Source: Chloroflexota bacterium (GTDB lineage: Bacteria > Chloroflexota > Anaerolineae > UBA2200). From it: 64,000 bases of DNA. A program made the translations under genes and the position numbers. Under the pieces are notes generated by a model. It was not told the origin of the DNA. It ran no database searches and saw only the letters and a program-made list of their open reading frames with translations. Location: assembly GCA_014360755.1 (NCBI GenBank), contig JACIWX010000004.1, positions 13,172 through 77,171 of the forward strand, in the 5' to 3' direction. Position 1 is the first letter of the stretch. Every line of letters starts with the position of its first letter. Of the stretch, positions 22,981-62,732 are shown piece by piece.

Positions 22981-23370
22981 TTATAGTTTGATCTCCTTGG
23001 AACTTTCCCACAGCCCATGGATGTTGCAGAAGGACAGCGCAATGAGTGTGCCGGGGTTGTTCACCTTCATGGAGAATTGTGCCTCGTGGTTGGTATACAC
23101 TGGCCCCTGATTGGCGCCTTTCACCGATTCTCCGTGGGCGCTGAATTCAAAGTGCCCTACCTGGTAAATGAATTTGTCCCCTTCTGGTTGAAAGTAGACG
23201 TCAATCCAGCGGATGTGATGCTCCGTGGTATTCGGGTGCGCGATCTCCTTACCAACACTGACCTTGACGGTGAACATCTTGTCTGCTTCAACTCGATCAG
23301 GACATTCAATCACCGGCACATGTTTTTCTGCTTTCCAATCGGCGGACTGGATCCTCTCACCTAGTTTCAT
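22981..23370 (-). CDS. Superoxide reductase (1Fe neelaredoxin-type, desulfoferrodoxin family)
   Basis: KHVPVIE, HPNTTEHHIRWI and CNIHGLWES are iron-ligand motifs. No N-terminal desulforedoxin domain. Confidence 0.88.
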   Translation of the reverse strand: MKLGERIQSADWKAEKHVPVIECPDRVEADKMFTVKVSVGKEIAHPNTTEHHIRWIDVYFQPEGDKFIYQVGHFEFSAHGESVKGANQGPVYTNHEAQFSMKVNNPGTLIALSFCNIHGLWESSKEIKL

Positions 23371-23385
23371 CGCTGATCTCCTCCC

Positions 23386-23547
23386 TCAGTTAATGGGCTC
23401 AAATTCGTCTTTCCCCGCCCCACATTCTGGACAGACCCAGTCATCGGGCAGGTCTTCAAATGCTGTTCCCGGTGGAACGCCGTTATCGGGGTCGCCTTTT
23501 GCCGGGTCATAGATGTATCCGCATACCTGACATTCCCACTTTTTCAT
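23386..23547 (-). CDS. Rubredoxin
   Basis: CQVCGYIY ... CPECGAG are the two CxxCG knuckles. GAGGAGG Shine-Dalgarno before the MKKWEC start; the ORF track start at 23580 is rejected. Confidence 0.93.
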
Positions 23548-23719: not shown

Positions 23720-24721
23720 CTAGCGTGAAACAGTGCTCGCCATCCTAGCAGCCAATTTCAATGCTTCGATCATGCTAGTTGGCTGGGCAGTCCCCTTGCC
23801 TGCCTTGTCAAAGGCAGTGCCATGGTCAACCGAGGTACGGATAATGGGCAGACCCAGCGTAACATTCACGCCTTGCTCAAAAGCCAGGACTTTGACCGGA
23901 ATGTGCCCTTGGTCGTGGTACATAGCCACCACCGCATCGAATTGGCCTTCTTTCATGCGGTAGAAGACAGTATCTGGGGAGATGGGCCCACTCACATCCA
24001 TGCCTTGTGCCCGCGCCACCTCGACCGCCGGGCGGATTTCCCGTTCCTCTTCATCGCCAAAAAGCCCGCTTTCACCAGCATGTGGGTTGAGCCCGGCCAC
24101 CGCCAAACGCGGCTGGGCAATACCCAGCCGTTGCAAGGCATCATGTGTCAAGCGGGTCACTTCCACGATGCGCTCTTTTTTCACCCAATGGATGGCTTCG
24201 CGCAAGGGTATATGCGTGCTGACATGGCTCACGCGGAAATCCCCCGCAACCAGCAGCATCGTAACGCTTTTGACCCCGCATAGGTGGGCTAAGAGTTCCG
24301 TATGGCCTGCAAAATGGTGCCCTGCCAGGTTCAATGCTTCTTTGTGTAAGGCAGAGGTAACGATAGCAGCGATCTCTCCCGCCAGTGCCAATTCAACGGC
24401 TTTCACCACGCACTCGTATGCAGCCTGGCCTGTCATGGCATCTACTTTGGCATACTCCAAGCGGCTCAGGTCAATGTTGTGTAGGTCAATGACCTCGATG
24501 ACGTCCGCGTCGAAAGTCGCCTCGCTCACACGGTGGATAGCACGGATCGGGACACTACTGCCCACAATCCGTGCCGCCTGACGGAATGCCGCCGCATCGC
24601 CAATCACGATAGGGCGGCAAAGGCCGCGTACCTGGGATTGCGTGAGAGCCTTCACCACGATTTCTGGCCCAGCCCCACTGGCATCCCCCATTGTAACGCC
24701 TAGAATGGGTTTCTCTTTCAT
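23720..24721 (-). CDS. PdxA-family NAD-dependent 4-phospho-hydroxyacid dehydrogenase (PdxA2-like by context)
   Basis: GVTMGDASGAGPEI, HAGESGLFG, MYHDQGHIP and IRTSVDHGTAFD. The ATG at 24721 overlaps the stop of the upstream kinase (ATGA). Confidence 0.88.
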   Translation of the reverse strand: MKEKPILGVTMGDASGAGPEIVVKALTQSQVRGLCRPIVIGDAAAFRQAARIVGSSVPIRAIHRVSEATFDADVIEVIDLHNIDLSRLEYAKVDAMTGQAAYECVVKAVELALAGEIAAIVTSALHKEALNLAGHHFAGHTELLAHLCGVKSVTMLLVAGDFRVSHVSTHIPLREAIHWVKKERIVEVTRLTHDALQRLGIAQPRLAVAGLNPHAGESGLFGDEEEREIRPAVEVARAQGMDVSGPISPDTVFYRMKEGQFDAVVAMYHDQGHIPVKVLAFEQGVNVTLGLPIIRTSVDHGTAFDKAGKGTAQPTSMIEALKLAARMASTVSR

Positions 24722-25926
24722 GGCAACCTTCCCTGAATGCACTCTATACATCGCAGGATGGCTGTCTCATCCCCAAACGCACCCGCTTTGGTCACGATGC
24801 GCACGCCATCAGATAATCCGCCTACCAACGTTCCAGCGGGCACGCCGGCCTCTACTTCGCCGTGGATTTGGAGCGCTTTTGCCTCCAAAGCTCGGCACAG
24901 CGCACGGGCTATGTCCCCGCCGGTCACGACAAACCCAGCCAAGGATGAAAGGGCCCAAGCCTTTGCTGCTGCTTGGGCTAGCGCCTCAGCGATCACTTTT
25001 TCTTTTCCGCTCTGGTGCTCAGAAAAAGCCGTGGTCAAGGCTACATGGTGTCCTCGATTCAGCCGAGGAATCACTTCTGCCTGTATTTTCTGCGCCCAAT
25101 CCTCCCCGGCTGGCAAATGGATCAGATACACGTTGTTGCCCGAAGCAGCGCGCTGCAATTGACGCAGCGTCGCAGGGTGGCGGCTGCCAGCCACCACCAA
25201 CACCGGTCGGGAATCAGGGCACCAATGAAACGGCGCGTGGTCTGGCCGTGCCCATCCCAAAGCCTGTGGCCATTCCTCTGCCCAGCCAGCCGATCCACAT
25301 GGCAGCCACTGCTCCGCCATGCGGGTTAACACCCGTGCCAGTATACGTAGGTGCCTTTGTTCAGCAGCGTCGGCTGCCACAATGGAAGCTGGTTCATTCC
25401 TCAGTGCACGGATGACTGCTTGTTCCCCTTCCTCTATCACGGACAGTGGCAGATATCCAACGGAGCGGTGAGTTTGTCGCGACAGCACAGTAGGTAGGTG
25501 CGACTCGGTGGCTGGCCACAGGGGATCGTGGGCAAAGGCACTTTCGCTCAGCAATACGCCATCCACACGGTGATAGCCATCCACTGTCGTACGGCCCGCA
25601 GCGGGAAAGGCAGGCGCAACCAGCGCTCTTTGCCAACCTAACTCATCCAATGCTCCTTCTAATTCTGGGCCGATGTTCCCACGCAGATTGGAATCAATCT
25701 TCTTGTAGATAAAGCGCCCGTGCAATCGCTTGGCAGCTTGTCTTGCCCGGCGGTATGCTTCCCCAGCAGGCTCATCCCGGCTGTCGGTGCTGAGCGCTAC
25801 GACTTCGGCTGAAGGCTGTTCCTGATCGCTCAGCAGGACCAGTGTGTGCAATCCCTGTTTGGCAAATTGCGCGCCTGTATCCATGGCACCGGTCAGGTCA
25901 TCGGCAATAACGCCCAGTTGGATCAT
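24718..25926 (-). CDS. Four-carbon acid-sugar kinase (DUF1537, YgbK/OtnK/DtnK family)
   Basis: The N-terminal GVIADDLTGAMDTGAQF motif is diagnostic of DUF1537; C-terminal VTGGDIA and VTKAGAFG. Confidence 0.85.
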   Translation of the reverse strand: MIQLGVIADDLTGAMDTGAQFAKQGLHTLVLLSDQEQPSAEVVALSTDSRDEPAGEAYRRARQAAKRLHGRFIYKKIDSNLRGNIGPELEGALDELGWQRALVAPAFPAAGRTTVDGYHRVDGVLLSESAFAHDPLWPATESHLPTVLSRQTHRSVGYLPLSVIEEGEQAVIRALRNEPASIVAADAAEQRHLRILARVLTRMAEQWLPCGSAGWAEEWPQALGWARPDHAPFHWCPDSRPVLVVAGSRHPATLRQLQRAASGNNVYLIHLPAGEDWAQKIQAEVIPRLNRGHHVALTTAFSEHQSGKEKVIAEALAQAAAKAWALSSLAGFVVTGGDIARALCRALEAKALQIHGEVEAGVPAGTLVGGLSDGVRIVTKAGAFGDETAILRCIECIQGRLP

Positions 25927-26009
25927 TTATCTTCGCTTGCCCCTACAGGCTACAATCTCAGCAAGGTTTCTCCCTACCGACTGTAGGATGATGCAACTTG
26001 CATCGTTTG

Positions 26010-26804
26010 TCAAATGCTGGTATCCATAGCAAATCCCAGCACGCGCTCAAAGCGGCGCAGCACCTTGAGCAAAGGGGTGCCGAGAGAAAGAATAAGTACG
26101 GCATTGCCTGCCGCACGCCATGCATCCCACCATAAAGATGTGGCCAGATAGAAGACGGCGTAGCGCTTGATTGCCTCACGGAATGGCAGCCCTGTTTCCC
26201 AAGCCTGTCCGGGGGACACTTGCGCTGTGGAGATATAGGGCCAGAACCAGAGGTTCATGATCGCACCAAAGATGAATCCCCACAGGGCAGTCCAGGCAGC
26301 CAGCATGAGCAATTCGGCGATCCTCCATCGGCGTAGATCGGGCAGCCAACCCGAGGTTAATCCCATCCAGCCGGCGGTGAACATCTGGTAAGGAAGCCAT
26401 GGTCCCACGCCCCCGCCAATCAGCGCGGAAACCAGGAGCGATAGCACACCCACCAGGAAGCCCAATGTGCTACCATATACATAGCCGCAGAGTACAAGGA
26501 GGAAAAAGATCGCTGAAAAGCCGCCAGGCCCGGGGATAGTGCGCAGGATGGCATTCACTGCGCTCAGTACGCCAAGCACGGCGATCGTCCTAGCGCTCAT
26601 CTGGCGGCTGGTCAGGTTGGCGACGATGATGACCACGCACAATAAGGTCAGGATCAAGGTGACAGAGGGCGCGTCCTGAGCGTGCGCTATGGCAAAGGGG
26701 CTACCGCCTGTCGTTGGAGTGAAAAAAGGATAGGCAAAAGCGGCGATGCCAGTGAGGGTGGCGAGTATCAGGATGGCAGAATTCACCCATTGCCCCCATT
26801 TCAT
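26010..26804 (-). CDS. Putative ECF-transporter substrate-capture (S) component
   Basis: 264 aa and polytopic. It is the last gene of the ECF module and overlaps the ATPase gene by 4 nt. No family motif recognised. Confidence 0.5.
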   Translation of the reverse strand: MKWGQWVNSAILILATLTGIAAFAYPFFTPTTGGSPFAIAHAQDAPSVTLILTLLCVVIIVANLTSRQMSARTIAVLGVLSAVNAILRTIPGPGGFSAIFFLLVLCGYVYGSTLGFLVGVLSLLVSALIGGGVGPWLPYQMFTAGWMGLTSGWLPDLRRWRIAELLMLAAWTALWGFIFGAIMNLWFWPYISTAQVSPGQAWETGLPFREAIKRYAVFYLATSLWWDAWRAAGNAVLILSLGTPLLKVLRRFERVLGFAMDTSI

Positions 26805-28429
26805 CTTCCCAGAGCCTCCAGGACGTCCTTTACGGTGAGCAGGCGAGGATCGCGGAACAATTTGTTCACCTGTGAAGCAAAGACCAGCGACTGGCTCATT
26901 ACTTCGCGCGTTGGCCCATCTACTGCTACCTGGCCTTCGCTGAGGATGACCACGCGGTGTGCGCAGGCGGCGGCCAGTTCTACATCGTGCGTGGCAAGAA
27001 TGACAGTACGGCCTTGTTCTGTCTGGGCGCGCAGAAAATCAGCCAATGCCTGCTTCTCCACGGGGTCAAGCCCACGTGTCGGTTCATCAAGCAGCAAAGT
27101 AGGAGGCTCAGCAACGAGGATCGCAGCGATTGCTACGCGTTGCCGCTGGCCAACGCTCAGCTCGCGCGGATACAGTTCAGCCAGTTGGGTTAGTCCCAGC
27201 TTTTCCAACCAGGACTGTACTCCTGCTAAGGATAGTGCGTGGGCACGACGCGTGAATTCCAGTTCTTGGCGAACGGTATCGGCAAAAAGTAAAGTGCTTG
27301 GGTCTTGGGGGACATAGCCCACATAGCGGATGAGGGTTTCCAACGATGTCCGGCGTGTATCCTGTCCGTGCACCACGACATAGCCGCGCTTGGGCTGCAA
27401 AAGTCCCACGAGGTGCTTCAACAAAGTGGTTTTGCCCGATCCATTGCGTCCCATGAGCGCGATCAACTCACCCTCTCCGGCGCGCAAGGAGACCCGGCGC
27501 AGTGCCTCCACGCCATTGTAATTGAACCACACCTCGTGCGCTTCAACATGCACGGGGTTGTATTCGCGTCGCAACCCTGGCTGGTGAGTCTCACGAGGCA
27601 AAGCACGCTGCATGTCCATTTGGCTGATGAAAGGACGTGCTTCTTTGATAGTCAAGGGCAGAGGTTGCCAATGGAATGCCTTAGCCAGTTGCACCAGAGG
27701 AGGCGCAAAGGGAACTTGGGGCAGTACTTCTTCCGCCTTGCCCAGCATTGGCTGGCTACCTAGTGCAGGAAGATAGATGATCTGGTCTGCGTATTGCACG
27801 ACCCGTTCCAGACGGTGTTCTGAGAGCACAACCGTCAAGCCCAGGTCTTGGTTCAGATGGCGTAGCGTAGTCAGCACTTCTTCTGCCGCCTGAGGGTCGA
27901 GTTGTGAAGTTGGCTCATCCAGTACGAGCACTTTGGGCTGCAGCGTGAGCACAGAACCGATGGCAACGCGTTGCTTTTCGCCCGCCGAAAGGCTGCTAAT
28001 CCGCCGCTGACGCAGGTGCGCAATGCCCAGTTGATCCAGTACTTCTTCCACGCGCTTGCGCATTACCGTCTGTGGAAGCCCTTGGTTCTCCATGCCAAAG
28101 GCTAGTTCATCCTCTACTGTGTCTACCACGAACTGCGCTTCTGGATCCTGCTGCACCAAGCCAACGATAGGGCTCATCCGATGGGGGCCTTCCGCGATGG
28201 GATCGTGGCCTGCCACCGTGATCTTCCCGGCAATGCGTCCGCCACTGAAATGGGGCACCAGTCCGTTCAGTGTACGCAACAGGGTAGATTTGCCAGCGCC
28301 AGAGGGCCCAATGACCAGAACAAAATCCCCCTCTTGGATGGCCACGTTCACTTGGTTCAATGCAGGGCGATCACTATGCGGATAATGAAAAGTTACGTTC
28401 TGTAGTCTAATTAACGGTGTATGCATCAA
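26801..28429 (-). CDS. ECF transporter ATPase, fused EcfA-EcfA' (two ABC domains)
   Basis: Walker A GPSGAGKST and GRNGSGKTT; signatures LSAGEKQRV and LSVGQRQRV; Walker B LVLDEPTS and LLLDEPT. Confidence 0.92.
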   Translation of the reverse strand: MMHTPLIRLQNVTFHYPHSDRPALNQVNVAIQEGDFVLVIGPSGAGKSTLLRTLNGLVPHFSGGRIAGKITVAGHDPIAEGPHRMSPIVGLVQQDPEAQFVVDTVEDELAFGMENQGLPQTVMRKRVEEVLDQLGIAHLRQRRISSLSAGEKQRVAIGSVLTLQPKVLVLDEPTSQLDPQAAEEVLTTLRHLNQDLGLTVVLSEHRLERVVQYADQIIYLPALGSQPMLGKAEEVLPQVPFAPPLVQLAKAFHWQPLPLTIKEARPFISQMDMQRALPRETHQPGLRREYNPVHVEAHEVWFNYNGVEALRRVSLRAGEGELIALMGRNGSGKTTLLKHLVGLLQPKRGYVVVHGQDTRRTSLETLIRYVGYVPQDPSTLLFADTVRQELEFTRRAHALSLAGVQSWLEKLGLTQLAELYPRELSVGQRQRVAIAAILVAEPPTLLLDEPTRGLDPVEKQALADFLRAQTEQGRTVILATHDVELAAACAHRVVILSEGQVAVDGPTREVMSQSLVFASQVNKLFRDPRLLTVKDVLEALGR

Positions 28430-28432
28430 TCC

Positions 28433-29587
28433 TCATCCTCGATCGGTTTCGTAGTAGGATACGTGTAGAGAGGGCCATAGCCAAGCAGGTGTGGCGGTTA
28501 GGAGAATGGCTAGCCCAAGCGCTGGTGAAAACCCAGGCCAGGGGGAGTAAGGGGGATAGGGATAATAAAACAAGGCTGCGGGGTCCCGCACCTGGGTGTA
28601 GGCAGTGATGGCAAGGGATGCTAGACAAGCCAGGGATACCAGAGTATCCCGTTGTTGCCACAATTCATGGTGGTAGTGCGTACGTTTCAGACGTCTGCCT
28701 TGCGTGTAAAGAGCCGCAAATAAGAGCAATATACCCAGCGCAACTGATAACAGTCCTAGCCACTGTACAGAATCTGTCGCTCGCCACAGGAGACCCACTA
28801 GTAGCGCCAGCAATCCAGCCAACGTTGTCCCACGTTGGAGGTTTGTTGTGCTCCTTTCCGTCGTTGTTGGCATTGGGGAAACGCTCGAATCAGCCACTGC
28901 AAAGCGATCAATCCCGCCAAAGCCGCGTGCCTCCATTGATTCGGCTAGGGTCAAGGAACGCTCCAGGGCTGTCGTCAGTAAAGGCACAAACAGTGGTATC
29001 CAATCTCGGATGGCGCGAAACTTGTGTCCACGGAGGAGCTGAGCTTCCCGTATCTCTCGGAGGCTAGCGATTAGTTGTGGGATAAAAGACAAAGCAATAG
29101 AGACAATCAATCCAGCTTGGTAGAGCCCAGCGGGGAGCCAGCGCAACAATCGGTGTGCATCCAAACCTAGATTAAAGGTGGCAAAAACCAATAGCACGGC
29201 AAAAAGACTGGCGCCATTTGCCAATCCATATAGCAAGGCTTCTAATGTGATTGGTCCGCCGATGAATGGCCAGTTGCGTGGCAGCACCAATAATACGATG
29301 TTGCCGGCATGGGCAAAAAGCAGGTTGAAAAAGAGTGCTACCAACCAGACTGACAAGCCAAAGCGCAGAAAAGCGCTCCACCCTTGGACTTTCCAAGCCT
29401 GACCCGCATGTGAGGACGCATTTCTAGCCCCGGGGTTGGCTTCTGGTTGGTTTGCGCGGCTGACCGCGGCAAAAACCGTGCCCGTGGCTAGGATGAGCAA
29501 TATCGATTGGAGCGGCTGCTGGTTCACCAAGGCTAGGTATGCTGCAGCGCCAAGCCATGCTAGCCAAGTAAGCGTATGGTAGGCCAT
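28433..29587 (-). CDS. ECF transporter transmembrane (T) component, CbiQ/EcfT family, with an extra C-terminal polytopic extension
   Basis: Coupling-helix motifs LREIREAQLLRG and AESMEARGFG. About 130 residues with further hydrophobic helices follow the CbiQ core. Confidence 0.8.
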   Translation of the reverse strand: MAYHTLTWLAWLGAAAYLALVNQQPLQSILLILATGTVFAAVSRANQPEANPGARNASSHAGQAWKVQGWSAFLRFGLSVWLVALFFNLLFAHAGNIVLLVLPRNWPFIGGPITLEALLYGLANGASLFAVLLVFATFNLGLDAHRLLRWLPAGLYQAGLIVSIALSFIPQLIASLREIREAQLLRGHKFRAIRDWIPLFVPLLTTALERSLTLAESMEARGFGGIDRFAVADSSVSPMPTTTERSTTNLQRGTTLAGLLALLVGLLWRATDSVQWLGLLSVALGILLLFAALYTQGRRLKRTHYHHELWQQRDTLVSLACLASLAITAYTQVRDPAALFYYPYPPYSPWPGFSPALGLAILLTATPAWLWPSLHVSYYETDRG

Positions 29588-29590
29588 GAG

Positions 29591-30208
29591 TTACCGCTCC
29601 TGTCGGCGCAAGTGCAGGAAGAAAAAGCTGCCAACTAGCACTGCCGTCATCAGAGCAAAGGCAGCATATTGCATCAGTATAGTGCTTCGGCTATCCCTTG
29701 TGGTAGCATCCAGCTGGTTTGCGGTCACAGCTGCCCCGCGAGCACAAATTTGTTCTACAGGCACAACCGGAGGCGGTTGGCCATTGCTCCAAGCCCAGCC
29801 TTCGATATCGCCATCGCGTACGAGATAATCCGCAGCCCCTACTTGTGAGTAGACCCAACGGCCTTCGCGCCAATGCCAATAACTCCAATAGAGGCATTTT
29901 GCCCCCGTACATTGGCAGAAGCATGGCTCGGTAGGATAATCACAGCCATCCTGGTCGATGCGGCATACCGCGCCGCCCCATGTGACAACGTGCAATCCAG
30001 AGCGCATAAGCAGCTCCAGGCCGCTGAGGCTGTCCTCAGCAAAGGGTATACAGCGCGTGATGTAACTGCCATCGCCCAATTGTATCACCAGGCCAGCACG
30101 ATGGCTTGGTTGAGAGGCTGCCGCTGCAGTGGCGGCGGCATAGTAAGTTATTGCGATGGTGACCAAAGCCAGGGCTAGGATAGCGAGTGCCCATTTATTG
30201 CCATTCAT
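29591..30208 (-). CDS. Exported DUF4430-like (transcobalamin beta-domain-like) protein with a C-terminal membrane anchor
   Basis: N-terminal signal/anchor. YWSYWHWREGRWVYSQVGAADYLVRDGDIEGWAW resembles the DUF4430 pattern GW.Y.VNG....a..Y.l.dGD.i.W.Y. Cys-rich insert CRIDQDGCDYPTEPCFCQCTGAKC. C-terminal TM helix. Confidence 0.5.
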   Translation of the reverse strand: MNGNKWALAILALALVTIAITYYAAATAAAASQPSHRAGLVIQLGDGSYITRCIPFAEDSLSGLELLMRSGLHVVTWGGAVCRIDQDGCDYPTEPCFCQCTGAKCLYWSYWHWREGRWVYSQVGAADYLVRDGDIEGWAWSNGQPPPVVPVEQICARGAAVTANQLDATTRDSRSTILMQYAAFALMTAVLVGSFFFLHLRRQER

Positions 30209-30276
30209 CCGCGATGTTCCTCTAAGGAGAAGTATGGTGACCGGTGTCTTCCTTGACGCCGGTCACCTATTGCTCG

Positions 30277-31245
30277 CTAGCGCAGGCTGCGCAGCGGGAG
30301 GGTCTTGCCCAGCAGGGCTGGGATAGCCTGTACAGTAGCCATAACTGGGCTGCCCACTCCACGCTGGAACTCGATTTTGCCATCTTCCGCTTGCAGTGCG
30401 AGCAACGCGGTCACTGGGTTGCCACCAGCCTTGCTCCATTTCGCATCTTCTGGCTTTTCGCCAACGGCATACAACGCCATAATCACAGCAGCAGTGGAAT
30501 TGGCATTGGTGTCCGTACCCCACTCAGAAGGTTTGATAGCTGGAAACCCGCCGTCATCGTTCTGTTGCTCCAGGAAAAAGGCCAAGGCTTTACGGATCGC
30601 CGGGGAGTTGGTAGGTTCGCCTCCCGCGACAAGCGCCTGCAAGACACAGGAGACAGTATCATTGTCTGGACCAAAAGCGGAAGCCCACGCACCGTTTTCG
30701 AGTTGATAACTTTTGAGCACCGTTAAGGCTTCTGCTGGCACCTCCTGCCCTGCGGCCTTTAGGGCGAGGATAGCCCAGGCTTGGCCCACTGAACCTGGGT
30801 CATAGATTCCCTTGCTGCTGGCAAAGGATTGCAAGCGATCCACGTAATTGATACCCCCAAAGTTCTTGGGGTCAAGACCAGCTGCAACCACTGTTACAAT
30901 CAGTTTGCCTGTTGTCGCTGCATCCATGGCATACTCGTTGCCGTTGGCAGCCAAGTAATCCATGAGCGATGGCTTACCTGCGGCAGAGCGCCATGTCGCG
31001 GGATCGCCACCGCTGGCAACAATCGCCAGCACCGCATCGCAGGTTACGCCAGCGGGATGGCCAAAGCCAATATTGAAACTGCCGTCTTCCTGCAGTTGCG
31101 TACGCAGCCAGGTCAGAGCTTTCTCAGCTGCTTGTTGTCCACGGCTGGGTTGTGTTTTCGGTACACGAGGGCTGCAGGCACTGATGCAGAGCAACGCTAT
31201 AATCAGTGCCAGTGCAGCTAGTAAATACAGTTGTTTTTTTCGCAT
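30277..31245 (-). CDS. Lipoprotein with prenyltransferase/squalene-oxidase-like alpha/alpha-toroid repeats
   Basis: Lipobox LLCISAC. Repeated helical-hairpin units contain DGSF, NGAW, DGGF and DGKI turns, as in terpenoid cyclase / prenyltransferase repeats. Confidence 0.75.
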   Translation of the reverse strand: MRKKQLYLLAALALIIALLCISACSPRVPKTQPSRGQQAAEKALTWLRTQLQEDGSFNIGFGHPAGVTCDAVLAIVASGGDPATWRSAAGKPSLMDYLAANGNEYAMDAATTGKLIVTVVAAGLDPKNFGGINYVDRLQSFASSKGIYDPGSVGQAWAILALKAAGQEVPAEALTVLKSYQLENGAWASAFGPDNDTVSCVLQALVAGGEPTNSPAIRKALAFFLEQQNDDGGFPAIKPSEWGTDTNANSTAAVIMALYAVGEKPEDAKWSKAGGNPVTALLALQAEDGKIEFQRGVGSPVMATVQAIPALLGKTLPLRSLR

Positions 31246-31271
31246 CGCAAGGTCCTTTCTCCGTGTGATGG

Positions 31272-31307
31272 TAAAAAGAAACCCCCTGCCTCTTCGGACA
31301 AGGGGTT
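31272..31307 (-). terminator. Intrinsic terminator in the riboswitch expression platform
   Basis: Minus strand reads AACCCCTTGTC-cgaaga-GGCAGGGGGTT followed by TCTTTTTA. The stem is 11 bp including two G-U pairs. Confidence 0.7.
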
Positions 31308-31367
31308 AAATGGATTTTTTCTCTTTTCTCTCCCACCCCCTTTCTCGCGAAGGGTCGCTAGGAGCAC

Positions 31368-31487
31368 CACAGAGGCGGGTAATCTGGCTCCCTCGGATAA
31401 ACCGAGGCTACAGTTGCGGGACAGCGCCGGACTGAACCGGTCTTCCCCCATCGTCGCCGGGCTTCCGGGCCTTGGGCGACCTCTGTG
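31368..31487 (-). promoter_or_regulatory. Cobalamin (B12) riboswitch aptamer
   Basis: Minus strand has a closing helix CACAGAGG...CCTCTGTG, the core GGGAAGACCGGTTCAGTCCGGCGCTGTCCCGCAACTGTAG, and a B12-box-like GAGCCAGATTACCCGCC. Confidence 0.75.
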
Positions 31488-31511
31488 TTGCAGATATGCG
31501 ATTCATTTGCT

Positions 31512-31540
31512 AATATAGCAAATAAAAATGTTTTCGTCAA
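31512..31540 (-). promoter_or_regulatory. Sigma70-type promoter of the B12-regulated operon
   Basis: Minus strand reads TTGACG (31540-31535), 17 nt, TATATT (31517-31512). Confidence 0.6.
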
Positions 31541-31552
31541 ACACAGTGGCAC

Positions 31553-31730
31553 GAGAGTGTTGAAAAAGCCCTTTCAATGTCATGCTGAACCTTCGCCCTG
31601 AGCCTTGCTCTGAGCGAAGCGAAGGGAAAGCGAAGGGGAAGTGAAGCATCTCGCAGTACTTGGGAAAATACGGCTAAAGTTACGCGAGGCCCTTCGCTTT
31701 GCTCAGGGTGACAGGATTTTCAACACTCTC
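31553..31730 (+). mobile_element. MITE-like palindromic repeat, copy 2 (178 bp)
   Basis: Same termini as copy 1 plus an extra internal hairpin module (cttcgccctgagc...gcgaagg). Flanks are gtggcac / gtggtac. Confidence 0.8.
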
Positions 31731-31807
31731 GTGGTACCGGTTTTTACTAAGACTCGAGAATGCGCGAGATCGCTTACAAAGGATGTAGACATCTGCAGGA
31801 GGGTTTC

Positions 31808-32401
31808 ATGGATAACATTGGTTGGCGCAGGTTGATTTACCTAGTGCTTATCTTGTGGATTGGGCTCCTTCTCTACTCGCTTTTTCGCATCCCCGCGCCG
31901 GCGTTGTATCTGGCTGTGCGGGCCACTGCCTTGTTTAGCTATACAGCCGTTTTCTTAGCCATCCTCTCGGCCGAATACCTGCGCGAAATGCGCAGGCTCT
32001 TTGGCGAGCCTTTCCTTACCGTGCACCACATTTTGGCAGTAGCCGGATTGCTGCTTATGAGCTTGCATGCTGTACTCTTCGCTCTGCTGATGCGTGATAT
32101 AACAGTGTTTTTGCCGCGTTTTGACTCCTTGCGTATTTTCCTATCCTTAGGCGGTCGGCCTGCTCTGTATCTCTTTGCCATAGCCGCGTTGGCAGCAGTA
32201 GTACGAGGTCGTATTCGCCATATCTGGAGAACGATCCACTGGCTCAACTACCTCGCTTTCGCGCTGGCTTTTGTCCACTCCTGGCTGATTGGCACAGATG
32301 TTTCCAACCTCTTGCTGCGCTCCATCTGGGTAGTTCTCGCTGGGATTGTATTATGGGTTTTCATACGCAAGCGGCTGTTGCAGCGCAGAACACGACATTG
32401 A
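31808..32401 (+). CDS. Ferric-reductase-like transmembrane (di-haem, MsrQ/YedZ-like) protein
   Basis: Six hydrophobic helices with conserved His pairs (VHHILAVAGLLLMSLHAV; IHWLNYLAFALAFVHSW). GGAGG Shine-Dalgarno before the ATG at 31808. Confidence 0.6.
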   Translation: MDNIGWRRLIYLVLILWIGLLLYSLFRIPAPALYLAVRATALFSYTAVFLAILSAEYLREMRRLFGEPFLTVHHILAVAGLLLMSLHAVLFALLMRDITVFLPRFDSLRIFLSLGGRPALYLFAIAALAAVVRGRIRHIWRTIHWLNYLAFALAFVHSWLIGTDVSNLLLRSIWVVLAGIVLWVFIRKRLLQRRTRH

Positions 32402-32403
32402 TC

Positions 32404-33654
32404 TTATGCGTCTTCCAGTAACCTTCGCTCGCCAGTCAGTTCGCGGATACGCGTGATGTCCTGTGTCACTTCTATAGTGCCCACATATGCACCATTCTCG
32501 TCACGCACCGCAAAGTAGCGGATGTGCACGAATTTGCCCTTCATCTGAATCCAGAACTCAGCCACGTCTCGCTTGCCTTGCCGGAAATCATCCAAGATGC
32601 GGTTCACCACATGTATACTGGCGGGTGGGTGGCAATTCTGGACTTTACGACCAATAATGGCTTTGGCGCGTGGGAAAATGCGTTCTGGAGTCTGTGAAAA
32701 GTATCTCACAGTATCGTCCTTATCCACAAAGGTGATGTCAACCGGCAGGTGCTTCAGGAGCAAGTTAATTTCCTGGGGCGTCAAACTGCCTGTATCCAGG
32801 GACAAGGCGCTCGGTATCACTTGTGCCTCGGCAGGCTGCGCTGCTGCCGCGGGTTGTTCCTTGGCTACAGCCTGTGGCCATTCATCTCCCGGTTGAATCA
32901 AGCAATAGCCCAGCTCAGCGCTTTGTTCCTTAATTGCCAACCATTCTGCATCTGAGAACCTCTCTAAGGCTGCCGGATAGAGGATGTTGTTCTCCTTGTA
33001 GATCATCTCAGTAATGGCGGTGCTCAAAGGCTGGACTACTTGTTTAATGGCTGCCACCAGCGCAGCGAAATCATAATCTCGGTACTTGGTCAGTATCTGC
33101 TGCAGTTCCTTGAGTTTAGCGCGGATATCGTCATGAATAGCCCACATGACCGAAGATGGCCCGTAGAAACCATGCTTTTCTAGATAGGGGAAGAGCAGGT
33201 TTTCTTTGCGTAAATAGTGTTTATTGACTTGCATCAACCTGTCCAGAGTTTCGCGTGCGCGCTGTATTGGCTCACCTGCCGCCTCAATCGTCCCCGCCGC
33301 GGCTATCTGCTGTATCCTCTCTGCAAGTTCTTCCACTACTTTGGCTATGGCTTCGTTTTCAGCGCGGAAAGTATGCACCGGATGCCCAGGCACCATTTCG
33401 GGTGGCACTTGCTTGTCCAGTGACTCGCGGAACACCTGCACATGGACGTCGCATAGCTCTTTGATCTGCTCGCTAGGCACCCCTTCTGCAATCAGTGCTT
33501 GCTCCATTTGCGCGATTTCCGTCGCGCTGACATCCTTTATGAGCGCACGAAACTCTTCCTTTACCGCTTCAAGGTCACGTCCCTCGTGCAGTTCGCGGAT
33601 GAGTCGTTTTAGCGTTTCCTGTCGGTATTGACGGTTATTGATGTACTCGCTCAT
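32404..33654 (-). CDS. DUF438 protein (hemerythrin-like HHE domain plus C-terminal PAS)
   Basis: The N-terminal LIRELHEGRDLEAVKEEFRALIKDVSATEIAQMEQALI pattern is typical of DUF438. His/Glu-rich central domain; PAS-like C-terminus. Confidence 0.75.
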   Translation of the reverse strand: MSEYINNRQYRQETLKRLIRELHEGRDLEAVKEEFRALIKDVSATEIAQMEQALIAEGVPSEQIKELCDVHVQVFRESLDKQVPPEMVPGHPVHTFRAENEAIAKVVEELAERIQQIAAAGTIEAAGEPIQRARETLDRLMQVNKHYLRKENLLFPYLEKHGFYGPSSVMWAIHDDIRAKLKELQQILTKYRDYDFAALVAAIKQVVQPLSTAITEMIYKENNILYPAALERFSDAEWLAIKEQSAELGYCLIQPGDEWPQAVAKEQPAAAAQPAEAQVIPSALSLDTGSLTPQEINLLLKHLPVDITFVDKDDTVRYFSQTPERIFPRAKAIIGRKVQNCHPPASIHVVNRILDDFRQGKRDVAEFWIQMKGKFVHIRYFAVRDENGAYVGTIEVTQDITRIRELTGERRLLEDA

Positions 33655-33694
33655 TGATCCTCCTCAACCTTTCTCTCAGAAATCTGGTTTGTAA

Positions 33695-34912
33695 TCATCC
33701 TTCCTCACGGATGCTGCGGGCAAAGGCAGCGGCGAGTTCCTCTGCTTTGTGCAGGTCTTCGAGGGTTGGTGCCCCCTGAAATTCCAACGGAGTGAATTGT
33801 TCCCATTTTAAAGTTTGTGCGATGGCATCAAACTCGCGCTGGGCCCCACCTGACCAGCCATACGACCCATAACGGAAAACTTTTTTATTGGTCATATTCT
33901 TGCGCATAATGCTGTCCAGGACATGCGCCATAGGCGGGAACAGCTTGGTCTCGTAAGTCGGAGCGCCAACAACAACGCCCTTGTTCTTAAAGACGGAAGC
34001 CAGGATGTAAGATTCATCTGCCAAGGGTACTTCAAAGACTTCCATGGGCACTTGCTCGCGGGCGATGCCGCGCATTACGGCATCGGTGGCGATTTTGGTA
34101 TTGCCGTACATGCTGCTCCAAAGCAAGGTAATGCCCTTTTCAGCCTTTCCGGTGGGGTATTCGGCGAATTTCTTGTAATAGGCGACCACCTCTCCAGGGT
34201 TTTTGCGCCAGACCAAGCCATGGGAGGGCGCAATCACAGAGACTTCTGTCCCGGCCAGTTTGTCAATAGCCCGCAGCACCATGCGGGAAAAGTTCGCCAC
34301 GATGTTGGCATAGTAGCGCAGCATTTCATCGTAATAGAAAGCCCAGTCGGATTCCTGAACCTGGTCGTCAAAAAGGATGCCTTTCAACGCACCAAAGCCA
34401 CCGAACGCATCGCAGGAAAACAACACTTTCGTTGTGAGTTCGTAGGTCATCATCGTTTCAGGCCAATGGACAAATGGCGTGTGGACAAAAAGTAGCCTCT
34501 TGCCTCCACCTAAGTCGAGCTGTTCGCCATCCTCCACCGCTTTTAGCCCTTCGGTGATGCCAAAGAAGTGTTTGGTCATCTCGATTCCCTTGGGCGTGGA
34601 AATAATGACCGCTTGCGGGGCTATGCGGCGAAAGTTCTGCACAAACTCTGTATGATCTGGTTCTAGATGGTTCAAGATGACATAGTCAACATCCTGCGGT
34701 GCTATGCCTGTGGAGTGCAATTGGGTGAGGAGGTTGCGCGAACTGCCGCTCCACTCACGCACCAAGTCGATAATGGCGGTCTTTTCACCCTTTACCAAGT
34801 AGGAGTTAAGGGATACGCCATGCGGAATGGGCCAGAGGCCCTCAAACAAGTCATGCGATCTGACATTGACGCCAATCCACCAAATTCCTGGCTTAATTTC
34901 TATTGCAGTCAT
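33695..34912 (-). CDS. Flavodiiron protein (FprA-type A-flavoprotein, O2/NO reductase)
   Basis: Metallo-beta-lactamase-like di-iron motif NHLEPDH plus a C-terminal flavodoxin domain (LLWSSMYGNT). Confidence 0.9.
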   Translation of the reverse strand: MTAIEIKPGIWWIGVNVRSHDLFEGLWPIPHGVSLNSYLVKGEKTAIIDLVREWSGSSRNLLTQLHSTGIAPQDVDYVILNHLEPDHTEFVQNFRRIAPQAVIISTPKGIEMTKHFFGITEGLKAVEDGEQLDLGGGKRLLFVHTPFVHWPETMMTYELTTKVLFSCDAFGGFGALKGILFDDQVQESDWAFYYDEMLRYYANIVANFSRMVLRAIDKLAGTEVSVIAPSHGLVWRKNPGEVVAYYKKFAEYPTGKAEKGITLLWSSMYGNTKIATDAVMRGIAREQVPMEVFEVPLADESYILASVFKNKGVVVGAPTYETKLFPPMAHVLDSIMRKNMTNKKVFRYGSYGWSGGAQREFDAIAQTLKWEQFTPLEFQGAPTLEDLHKAEELAAAFARSIREEG

Positions 34913-60980: not shown

Positions 60981-62732
60981 TTACCCCTCGAGCCAGCGAG
61001 GCACATAAATAATTAGAGAAAGCAGTGAATCCGTCAAGACGAAGATGAGATAGGCAGTGAAAAGCGTGTGGTATTTCGTTCTGCGGAAGTAAAACCACAA
61101 AGCTCCCAAAGCGACCAGTAGGGTAAAAAAGGGAGTGCCAAGCACGGGCAGGAAATGCAAGTTTTGCGGCAATCTATCCAGCAACGGAGCGTAGAGCAGC
61201 ACTCCCGGCATCAAGAACAGCTTGGAGAAAAGATATAGTAGGATCGCTATTGCCAATGCAATTTGCGAGGGTCGCCGATCTAACCCACCTTCCACTTTGA
61301 CAAAGTAGAAAAGGACAATCCAGGCAAAAGAGGCAAAGCTCCACAAGAGGAAGATGGCGGGGAAAAATCCAAAGGCGGGAGCCAGACCCCACACGCTGTT
61401 GAGGAAATCCATAGCTCGGTCTTGCATGGTTACACGGTCTAGATTGGCTTTGACTGCCGCAGAGGTGCTTGCATAGTATATTTCATAGCGGCCAAAACCC
61501 CCCGCGTTCAGCCAGGCCAAGTGCACATTTCCTTCTGCATCTAATACGCCTACAGGGCGTAGGGCGTTACCGAGCTTGGTAGGTACTTGATAGCCCTTGA
61601 CCTTGCCATCAGCCAGGATGACCCATATTACTTCCCGACTCGACTTACGTTGTGTAGCCACCTCACCGACGAGCAGCACACCCAATTCCTCACGTTGACC
61701 ATTCAATACCTTAGGCATATACAATAAGGATGTGGGCCAGCCCATTTCTGCCGAGGCTAATCGTTGGTACGGTAGGCTGCCAGATGTAGCCTGGTACATC
61801 GGCCTAGCCGTGCCCGGGATTTCCAATATCATCGCTTCAGCCTCGCGTGGTTCCTTTAGGGGAAAGGATACGAAATATGTCTTGGCTTCTCCAGGAGTCA
61901 AGCCTCCGCCGCGCTGCTCCAAAGCCCAGAGTAGGTAGCCATTTTCCTTGTCCAGCCCCAGGACAGGCGGATAGGAAACGAGTCCAGTGGCGGTCTTGTA
62001 CGTGCCCACTTTGGTTTTTTGGCTTACCTCTCCCGTAGCGGGATGAAACAGTGCATAATAAATGTAATTCACGCGAATCGCGGGCTCTTCTATCCAAGCG
62101 AGGTGAACTACCCCGTCCGAGGTCACCTGTGCGGTTGGTTTCTCCGCATTTGGGATGAGCAAACGGTTGTCGCTGATGACCCGACCATCTGTAGCCAGCC
62201 GCAAGTGGTGTATGCCACCCTCTGTCGGTATCTCATCAGACCAGAAGACATCTAAAGTGCCGTCTGGGTTACAAGCCAGTGCGTAATCGGACACACGGGC
62301 GTTATCTGGAGATAGCCGTGTTGGGCCGCTCAGCAGTTGTCCATCGTAGGTAAACCTGGCGAGGAATAATGCACGAGGGATCGCAGGATTGTCTGTCCAC
62401 AGCAGACCCAGCGTTCCATCTGCAGCAGGGAAAAGCTGTGGATAACTCGGATGTGCCGTGTCAATCGCCAAATTCACGCCGAGCTCAGCGTCTCCAGAAG
62501 CCGATAGACGAACGTAGCGCAATCCCTGGTCCTCGGCTGTCACAAAAATCAGGTGAATATTATTACCCTCAGCTAACAAACCTATAGGTTGGTTAAGAGC
62601 AGCAATGCCTACCTGTTGCCCGCGGCTCCATTCAGGCAAAACTTTGCGCGTTTTCAAAGCACCAGCCTGACACCCAACTATAGTGATGGCAAAGCACAGC
62701 ATGATACAAACCACGGATATTCGTTTCGTCAC
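60981..62732 (-). CDS. Lipoprotein with a repeat-rich, beta-propeller-like ectodomain and a C-terminal polytopic membrane domain
   Basis: Lipobox TIVGC. A recurring h-h-L-x-W strand motif (IHLIF, LGLLWTD, LDVFWSD, VHLAWIE, YLLWALE, VHLAWLN), then about 5 TM helices. Confidence 0.55.
   Translation of the reverse strand: MTKRISVVCIMLCFAITIVGCQAGALKTRKVLPEWSRGQQVGIAALNQPIGLLAEGNNIHLIFVTAEDQGLRYVRLSASGDAELGVNLAIDTAHPSYPQLFPAADGTLGLLWTDNPAIPRALFLARFTYDGQLLSGPTRLSPDNARVSDYALACNPDGTLDVFWSDEIPTEGGIHHLRLATDGRVISDNRLLIPNAEKPTAQVTSDGVVHLAWIEEPAIRVNYIYYALFHPATGEVSQKTKVGTYKTATGLVSYPPVLGLDKENGYLLWALEQRGGGLTPGEAKTYFVSFPLKEPREAEAMILEIPGTARPMYQATSGSLPYQRLASAEMGWPTSLLYMPKVLNGQREELGVLLVGEVATQRKSSREVIWVILADGKVKGYQVPTKLGNALRPVGVLDAEGNVHLAWLNAGGFGRYEIYYASTSAAVKANLDRVTMQDRAMDFLNSVWGLAPAFGFFPAIFLLWSFASFAWIVLFYFVKVEGGLDRRPSQIALAIAILLYLFSKLFLMPGVLLYAPLLDRLPQNLHFLPVLGTPFFTLLVALGALWFYFRRTKYHTLFTAYLIFVLTDSLLSLIIYVPRWLEG

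Follow-up and report, generated by a model that had tools for sequence, protein, structure and literature searches.

A 64,000-nucleotide (nt) stretch of a Chloroflexota bacterium contig, referred to below as the window, was analysed with a focus on two neighbouring minus-strand genes, here called A and B, which encode an alpha/alpha-toroid lipoprotein and an exported protein with a predicted beta-grasp fold, respectively. A first-pass annotation of this DNA had proposed that the two products form a split analogue of transcobalamin, i.e. that they assemble around a corrinoid on the cell surface. All coordinates are given as positions within the window. Both genes are real open reading frames (ORFs), namely 30277-31245 (-) encoding 322 amino acids (aa) for A and 29591-30208 (-) encoding 205 aa for B. 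They are genes 1 and 2 of a five-gene minus-strand operon, in which they are followed by the genes of an energy-coupling factor (ECF) transporter. In 5'-to-3' direction, this operon consists of a promoter-like site, a cobalamin riboswitch, a terminator-like hairpin, A, B, EcfT, EcfA-A', and EcfS.

The leader region was inspected for regulatory elements. A sigma-70-like promoter (TTGACG-17-TATATT with an extended-10 TG; 31512..31540, minus strand), recognised by consensus match alone at 10/12 positions, is the sole minus-strand match in 25900-31800 and lies 13 nt 5' of a cobalamin riboswitch aptamer (Rfam RF00174; 31357..31499, minus strand). The aptamer was detected over the full model (positions 1-189) with 46.5 bits (gathering score 31.5) and an E-value of 1.7e-8, and it is located on the same strand as gene A, 112 nt 5' of its start codon. 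Between aptamer and start codon, there is a terminator-like hairpin (31280..31307, minus strand) with an 11-base-pair stem containing 6 GC pairs, followed by TCTTTTT. The ribosome binding site GGAGAAAGGA is located 3' of the hairpin, followed by the ATG of A at 31245. Promoter, aptamer, hairpin with T-run, ribosome binding site and ATG in this order represent the anatomy of a transcription-terminating OFF switch, and the hairpin is likely its expression platform. This riboswitch and operon context, which was absent from the first-pass annotation, is the strongest single argument tying the pair of A and B to B12.

Downstream of B, the three transporter genes are tightly packed. The gene for EcfT, the CbiQ-type transmembrane (TM) coupling component (28433..29587, minus strand; 384 aa; PF02361, 1.4e-11), starts 3 nt past the stop codon of B. 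After another gap of 3 nt, it is followed by the gene for a fused EcfA-A' double ATPase (26801..28429, minus strand; 542 aa) with two ABC_tran domains, which matches TIGR04520 (1e-111) and TIGR04521 (8e-105) with scores exceeding both family cut-offs. The last gene, whose first 4 nt are shared with the end of the ATPase gene, encodes EcfS, the substrate-specific membrane protein or S-component (26010..26804, minus strand; 264 aa; PF12822, 1.5e-12). A match of EcfS to CbiM (E 0.0025; 18.1 bits vs cut-off 23.1) is below the cut-off. With contiguous genes for EcfT, two EcfA domains and an S-component, the locus is a dedicated (group I) ECF operon.

Gene A encodes a candidate analogue of the transcobalamin alpha-domain. 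Its signal peptide MRKKQLYLLAALALIIALLCISAC ends in the lipobox ISAC with Cys24, as judged from the match to the pattern [LVI][ASTVI][GAS]C at the signal peptide end alone. A lipobox-like motif is found in 15/42 members of the A family, mostly the nearest relatives, and a lipobox is kept in the closest 13 or so. The prenyltransferase-like helical hairpins and the turns that the first-pass annotation had seen in A were found again, the former as matches to SQHop_cyclase_C (5e-10) and SQHop_cyclase_N, with Prenyltrans below its cut-off, and the latter as DGSF54, NGAW184, DGGF231, and DGKI288. AlphaFold confidently predicts A (pLDDT 94.4) to fold into one alpha/alpha toroid of about 290 residues, and the 12 helices past the signal peptide correspond to the alpha6/alpha6 architecture. 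In a Foldseek search against the PDB, the best matches were single-domain squalene-hopene-type or terpene cyclases (1.7e-7), and transcobalamin appeared from rank 30 (E 5.7e-5; TMq 0.54-0.56). A profile of the A family searched against PDB sequences likewise matched cyclase repeats, not transcobalamin. The hidden Markov model (HMM) Cobalamin_bind (PF01122; threshold 25 bits), which represents the alpha domain of eukaryotic cobalamin-binding proteins, was passed by 6/42 family members that share 42-45% identity with A; the best of them (P0221) aligned to profile positions 86-301 of 317 with 36.7 bits and 3e-9. Against the NCBIfam model SCO2321_fam (NF053823), A scored 83.5 bits (1.4e-23), far below the curated cut-off of 300.

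The protein encoded by B has an N-terminal signal peptide of the Sec type, which lacks a twin-arginine motif, and ends in a TM helix and a basic tail, in agreement with the earlier description of an exported and C-terminally anchored protein. Its conserved domain of about 120 residues (approximately 33-156) contains a Cys-rich insert (82-105) and is followed by a low-complexity, poorly conserved linker and the TM anchor (167-204). The Cys-rich insert that had been noted before is present, with 6 Cys in 24 residues (C82, C89, C96, C98, C100, C105) and not 7 as counted previously; two further Cys are located outside this cluster (C53, C155). Among 48 homologues of B, C82, C89, C96, and C98 are invariant, as are W108, Y110, W118, G124, G133, W138, and W140. 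An Fe-S cluster in B was considered and is unlikely because of the Sec-type signal peptide without twin-arginine motif. Precomputed Pfam annotation lists PF28005 ('SCO2322') for B, marked as weak, and also for most of the homologues. The NCBIfam model SCO2322_fam (NF040672) matched B with 31.8 bits (1.6e-7), far below the curated cut-off of 85, and covered residues 106-143 alone. According to the precomputed annotation, B may thus be placed, weakly, in the uncharacterised SCO2322 family (PF28005).

The tails of the B family (29591-29710 in B) share a Pro/Thr/Ala-rich linker, the consensus P-L-x-Q-Y-A-x-F, a TM helix, and a basic tail, thereby resembling sorting signals of the PGF-CTERM, PEP-CTERM or LPXTG type. 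Weak matches were obtained for five family members with Gram_pos_anchor and for the B-family profile with the PGF-CTERM tail of an S-layer protein from a haloarchaeon. By its sequence, the tail of B may be an uncatalogued Chloroflexota sorting signal instead of a plain anchor.

The first-pass annotation had assigned a segment of B by eye to DUF4430 (Pfam PF14478; gathering score 23.8 bits), the transcobalamin-like C-terminal domain. This assignment did not survive the HMM search. The DUF4430 model gave no match to B at E<=1 and none among 48 B-family members (E<=10) and 8 paralogues or fusions, although the positive control, human transcobalamin beta, was found with 29.1 bits (1.4e-6). As 0/56 sequences matched while the control passed, assignment of B to the DUF4430 family was rejected. 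Profile comparisons with hhalign of the B family with human transcobalamin beta and with six mammalian transcobalamin beta sequences, in which the DUF4430 side was composed of mammalian sequences alone, gave probabilities of 0.3-0.4%. A homologue search seeded with human transcobalamin beta returned 20 mammalian fragments alone and yielded no bacterial DUF4430 profile. Searched against all PDB sequences, the B-family profile had a sole match, in the low-complexity tail of an archaeal S-layer protein (E 4.6). In a library of representatives at 50% identity, the best 150 matches of B were all close family members and included no bridge to DUF4430. The best local pairwise alignment of B and transcobalamin (GAADYLVRDGD / GIADYRPKDGE) had a score of 34, which was equalled by 40/1000 shuffles, so that the motif seen by eye is no more than marginal.

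For the predicted structure, a different picture was obtained. With 48 sequences as input, AlphaFold gave a model of B with a pLDDT of 88.2 that consists of strand, strand, short helix, beta-hairpin, Cys-rich loop, and then three to four strands (E36-43, E49-56, H63-68, hairpin E74-77/E80-84, E107-114, E117-120, E135-141). The transcobalamin-like clade in the SLBB superfamily is recognised by a beta-grasp fold in which the helix is directly followed by a hairpin (PMC1796856). In its modelled fold, B thus has the features of this clade, and in its sequence it lacks the corresponding similarity. Foldseek searches of the B model against the PDB gave transcobalamin (7qbg_C; E 1.3e-3) and the bacterial DUF4430 protein 3u7z (E 2.3e-3) as top matches. 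Transcobalamin, 3u7z (TM-score 0.69 normalised to the target) and haptocorrin (4kki) made up the six best matches, and intrinsic factor (3kq4) was found at rank 8. The transcobalamin-type matches had a probability of 1.00 and E-values of 1e-3 to 4e-2, while ubiquitin-like and superantigen beta-grasps scored worse (E>0.09). For this model the E-values are modest, and the ranking is specific to the transcobalamin group. The structural part of the earlier proposal was thereby borne out by the predicted models, in that B retrieved the transcobalamin group as top PDB matches and A formed a toroid that can be aligned to transcobalamin. The likeness of B to transcobalamin beta appears to be real at the level of the predicted fold alone. 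In the hhalign register, which is statistically insignificant, the Cys-rich segment of B is inserted with no counterpart in transcobalamin, and the invariant G78, W108, Y110, G124, and G133 of B fall on the SGPY hairpin, the FWQLL strand 3 and the QGIADY..DGE connector. Hairpin, strand 3 and connector are the three B12-contacting segments of transcobalamin (PMC1796856).

For analysis of conservation, GTDB species genomes were searched with a B-family pattern. Relatives were found at 509 places, and the best 80 of these, all from Chloroflexota, were used for the comparison of loci. A toroid gene is located upstream in 48/59 loci with at least 2.5 kb of flanking sequence, and all three ECF genes are located downstream in 36/44 loci with at least 4.5 kb. 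At least two beta-like domains are encoded in 45/80 loci, and some loci have two or three toroid genes; in three of them (L018, L022, L029), three consecutive toroid genes precede the beta genes. A cobalamin riboswitch was detected upstream of the toroid gene in 12/13 related loci tested, with 44-77 bits. The locus without a detectable one (L028; 11213-12364) has the same gene order; there, a 16S rRNA gene begins about 1.2 kb past the ECF S gene and could place this lineage taxonomically. With a threshold of E<=1e-3, the B family comprises 4,629 representative clusters of the 50%-identity library, of which 1,214 remain at E<=1e-30.

Many related loci (L002, L015, L032, L067) contain a second, shorter beta paralogue that is 28-43% identical to B (e.g. 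L002:5268-5828). Of the Cys residues, this paralogue keeps just the four that are invariant, and instead of the TM tail of B it ends in a sorting signal of the PEP-CTERM type (Pfam, 4e-7 to 5e-6), which implies exosortase-type surface attachment in Chloroflexota. In 11/80 loci, a beta-like domain and the toroid are encoded as one ORF with the beta domain first. A beta domain and a toroid are also combined in P0358. Another protein of 587 aa (P0261) unites a beta domain of the CFCQC type, like B, a beta domain of the paralogue type and a toroid in one chain. A further protein of 483 aa (P0298) has three tandem beta domains. In a protein of 575 aa (P0388), a B-type domain and TM helix run without stop into a full EcfT (CbiQ, 1.5e-10).

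The riboswitch directly upstream, the genes for EcfT, EcfA-A' and the S-component downstream, and the natural beta-toroid fusions strongly favour a corrinoid role of the locus. With moderate confidence, we regard it as a dedicated ECF importer for corrinoids that is repressed by B12 and equipped with the surface proteins A and B, which would capture the ligand and hand it over to the S-component. The substrate would be cobalamin, another cobamide, or a large precursor such as cobinamide. According to this model, the cobalamin riboswitch with its terminator-type platform would turn off the operon when B12 is plentiful. A as a lipoprotein toroid and B as a beta-grasp domain on a flexible linker and TM helix would be anchored on the outside of the cytoplasmic membrane. 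We infer that most likely they would bind the scarce corrinoid there as a heterodimer, probably closing from two sides like the domains of transcobalamin, and would afterwards transfer it to the S-component, which would import it at the expense of ATP. Indirectly, capture of a corrinoid by the two proteins is well supported; the earlier interpretation as a whole is partly supported, namely by fold, context and fusions, and not by sequence.

Several results weigh against this model. B has no significant sequence similarity to DUF4430 or transcobalamin beta, and its structural matches have Foldseek E-values of about 1e-3 and rely on a predicted structure. A is nearer to squalene-hopene-type cyclases than to transcobalamin in both sequence and fold, and A itself had no match to Cobalamin_bind at E<=1. 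EcfS showed no sequence match to solved S-components, CbrT included, and thus no link to CbrT. B12 riboswitches commonly control cobalt ECF importers as well (PMC11477304), and a homologous system of Lactobacillus sakei has been assigned to haem uptake (bioRxiv 10.1101/864751). Finally, in loci with two beta genes, it is usually the paralogue and not the B orthologue that is fused or adjacent to the toroid. With the paralogue as usual toroid partner, B may pair with the transporter instead of A.

The last point leads to the alternative that survives best, namely that B is an extracytoplasmic 'receiver' docking on EcfT or the S-component, while A scavenges alone or together with other beta proteins and no sandwich of A and B is formed. 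Besides the preferred partnership of toroid and paralogue, the B orthologues are always located immediately before the ECF genes, and in P0388 the TM helix of B leads straight into the N-terminus of EcfT. This protein may be a true fusion or an artefact of sequencing or read-through, as the genes for B and EcfT are only 3 nt apart in the window. In the window there is one beta gene, so that any sandwich formed here must use B, which would then have to do both jobs, and P0261 unites a B-type beta domain with the paralogue-type one and the toroid. We judge the receiver function without sandwich as rather unlikely.

A second alternative is import of cobalt or another metal for B12 synthesis, with A and B capturing the metal and the Cys loop of B as metal site. 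Apart from the control of cobalt ECF importers by B12 riboswitches, it is favoured by the 6 Cys within 24 residues of B, by the name 'putative metal binding protein' that was given by the depositors to 3u7z, the nearest bacterial structural match of B, and by the weak CbiM match of EcfS together with the Pfam family of EcfT, which is named CbiQ. On the other hand, EcfS matches the vitamin-type family PF12822 and does not reach the CbiM threshold, and a CbiN-like gene is missing. A toroid of 290 residues and a transcobalamin-like beta-grasp suit a large ligand, and eight conserved Cys in an exported Sec substrate are more likely to form disulfides. Metal import is improbable in our view.

If the ligand is a corrinoid as preferred here, a different role of the SCO2322-type Cys cluster is conceivable. 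C82, C89, C96, and C98, placed where hairpin and strand 3 face the corrin, might supply a thiolate that ligates or processes the cobalt, and the TM-anchored domain might deliver the corrinoid directly to EcfT or the S-component. By analogy to the single Cys of BtuM, such a thiolate might speculatively act via base-off binding or removal of the upper ligand. The sole precedent for such Cys chemistry in B is this B12 uptake protein, in which a Cys can be the axial cobalt ligand (PMC6072759). We regard this extension as doubtful.

Still less probable is a substrate from another tetrapyrrole class such as haem. The precedent is the operon lsa1836-1840 of L. sakei with the proteins Lsa1839 and Lsa1840, which was reported to be involved in haem uptake, including docking of haem in the modelled heterodimer (bioRxiv 10.1101/864751). 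The cobalamin riboswitch, here and in the 12/13 relatives, ties expression to the B12 status and not to iron or haem, and no haem-related gene is adjacent, which makes haem very unlikely for the present locus. We reject the idea that A is an extracytoplasmic enzyme of the terpenoid cyclase or prenyltransferase type unrelated to B12: squalene-hopene cyclase repeats are its best sequence and fold matches and public annotations of A-type proteins ('terpene cyclase/mutase family protein') agree with them, but A contains neither DxDD nor DDxxD, has one toroid where squalene-hopene cyclases have two and thus shares with class II terpene cyclases (DxDD plus two-toroid beta-gamma architecture) the repeat motifs alone, is a lipoprotein, and is embedded in an ECF operon with B12 riboswitch, with family members passing the Cobalamin_bind model.

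Bacterial carriers of the transcobalamin type have been proposed before. In 2007, Burroughs, Balaji, Iyer and Aravind reported SLBB proteins of bacteria that resemble transcobalamin and occur with alpha/alpha toroids, and predicted them to be scavengers of B12 or its precursors (PMC1796856). Like the system described here, these proteins have secreted or surface-located beta-grasp domains with a hairpin insert after the helix, toroids that are fused in either order or encoded adjacently, often a second SLBB paralogue, and neighbouring genes for a CbiO-like ATPase and a CbiQ-like membrane protein (PMC1796856). The clade was regarded as a Gram-positive innovation, and the text mentions neither Chloroflexi nor Streptomyces (PMC1796856). 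Unlike the proteins of that study, the B family described here is missed by the DUF4430 model, is TM-anchored and has an invariant four-Cys insert between hairpin and strand 3.

Split genes for the alpha and beta parts have also been described before in Firmicutes. Verplaetse et al. (2019) reported the five genes lsa1836-1840 of L. sakei, which encode an ECF S-component, A-A' and T as well as a separate beta-like (Lsa1839) and alpha-like protein (Lsa1840) (bioRxiv 10.1101/864751). Both systems share exported alpha-like and beta-like proteins, and a heterodimer that captures the ligand and passes it to the S-component was explicitly proposed there. The L. sakei system differs in its assignment to haem, in its Firmicute host and in that no B12 riboswitch was reported; moreover, HHpred relates Lsa1839 to transcobalamin, haptocorrin and intrinsic factor (bioRxiv 10.1101/864751).

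Compared with the mammalian carriers transcobalamin, intrinsic factor and haptocorrin (2bb5, 2pmv, 4kki), the predicted folds of both halves are alike, and each of the three glycine-containing B12-contact segments in the transcobalamin beta domain has a conserved equivalent in B. The mammalian carriers are one soluble polypeptide, whereas two genes for membrane-tethered proteins are present here. They lack the Cys-rich insert of B, and their ligand release needs receptor-mediated endocytosis and proteolysis. ECF-CbrT of Lactobacillus delbrueckii is, like the proposed transporter, an ECF-type importer of cobalamin and cobinamide with the S-component as membrane-embedded binder, but it uses a shared (group II) ECF module, and extracytoplasmic helpers were not described (PMC5997447). 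The same adjacent gene pair is found in the SCO2321 and SCO2322 families, which are named after neighbouring genes of Streptomyces coelicolor; these families have no assigned function, and a literature search found no relevant paper on them. New aspects of the present locus are the divergent, Cys-rich and TM-anchored beta family (SCO2322/PF28005) missed by DUF4430 models, the lipoprotein and TM membrane anchors, the occurrence in Chloroflexota, and the clean riboswitch link to B12.

The surroundings of the operon were also inspected. Directly 3' of EcfS, 23720-25926 (-) encodes two enzymes, namely a four-carbon acid sugar kinase of 402 aa (SBD_N/NBD_C) and a dehydrogenase of the PdxA family with 343 aa. 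Their genes overlap by 34 nt; this pair resembles those for tetronate catabolism and has no obvious link to B12. No clean terminator was found between the ECF operon and this pair, the sole hairpin (26116..26096) being located inside the EcfS gene. Just past the PdxA gene, at about 22981-23547 (-), genes for rubredoxin and desulfoferrodoxin are present according to precomputed Pfam annotation of the identical contig. On the other flank of the operon, 32404-34912 (-) contains ORFs of 416 and 405 aa, whose products resemble, by eye, a hemerythrin/PAS-type protein and a flavodiiron protein. Together with the rubredoxin and desulfoferrodoxin genes, these two ORFs suggest an oxygen-stress cluster of an anaerobe. 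Divergent from the riboswitch promoter, 31760-32401 (+) encodes a membrane protein of 213 aa with a sub-threshold match to Ferric_reduct (23.6 bits vs cut-off 28), which could be an MsrQ-like haem-binding membrane reductase. More distantly, 60981-62732 (-) contains an ORF of 583 aa without Pfam match at E<=1e-5.

To our knowledge, ECF transporters are usually described as operating without extracytoplasmic binding proteins, and no bacterial transcobalamin-like protein with measured B12 binding was found in the literature searched. The locus is a compact, riboswitch-certified test case in which a single toroid and a single beta domain are combined with one ECF module; it is well suited as a starting point for experiments, but is not surprising. 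It raises the questions whether monoderm-type bacteria scavenge corrinoids via a two-piece transcobalamin, how the ligand passes from such a carrier to the S-component, and where the B12 carriers of animals originated. It also provides a functional prediction for two large families, i.e. SCO2322/PF28005, annotated as 'hypothetical protein', and the SCO2321-like toroids with their misleading annotation as terpene cyclases or mutases. If the thiolate role of the Cys cluster were true, the family would represent a large and so far overlooked group of ECF importers that have their own extracytoplasmic receptor with chemical activity.

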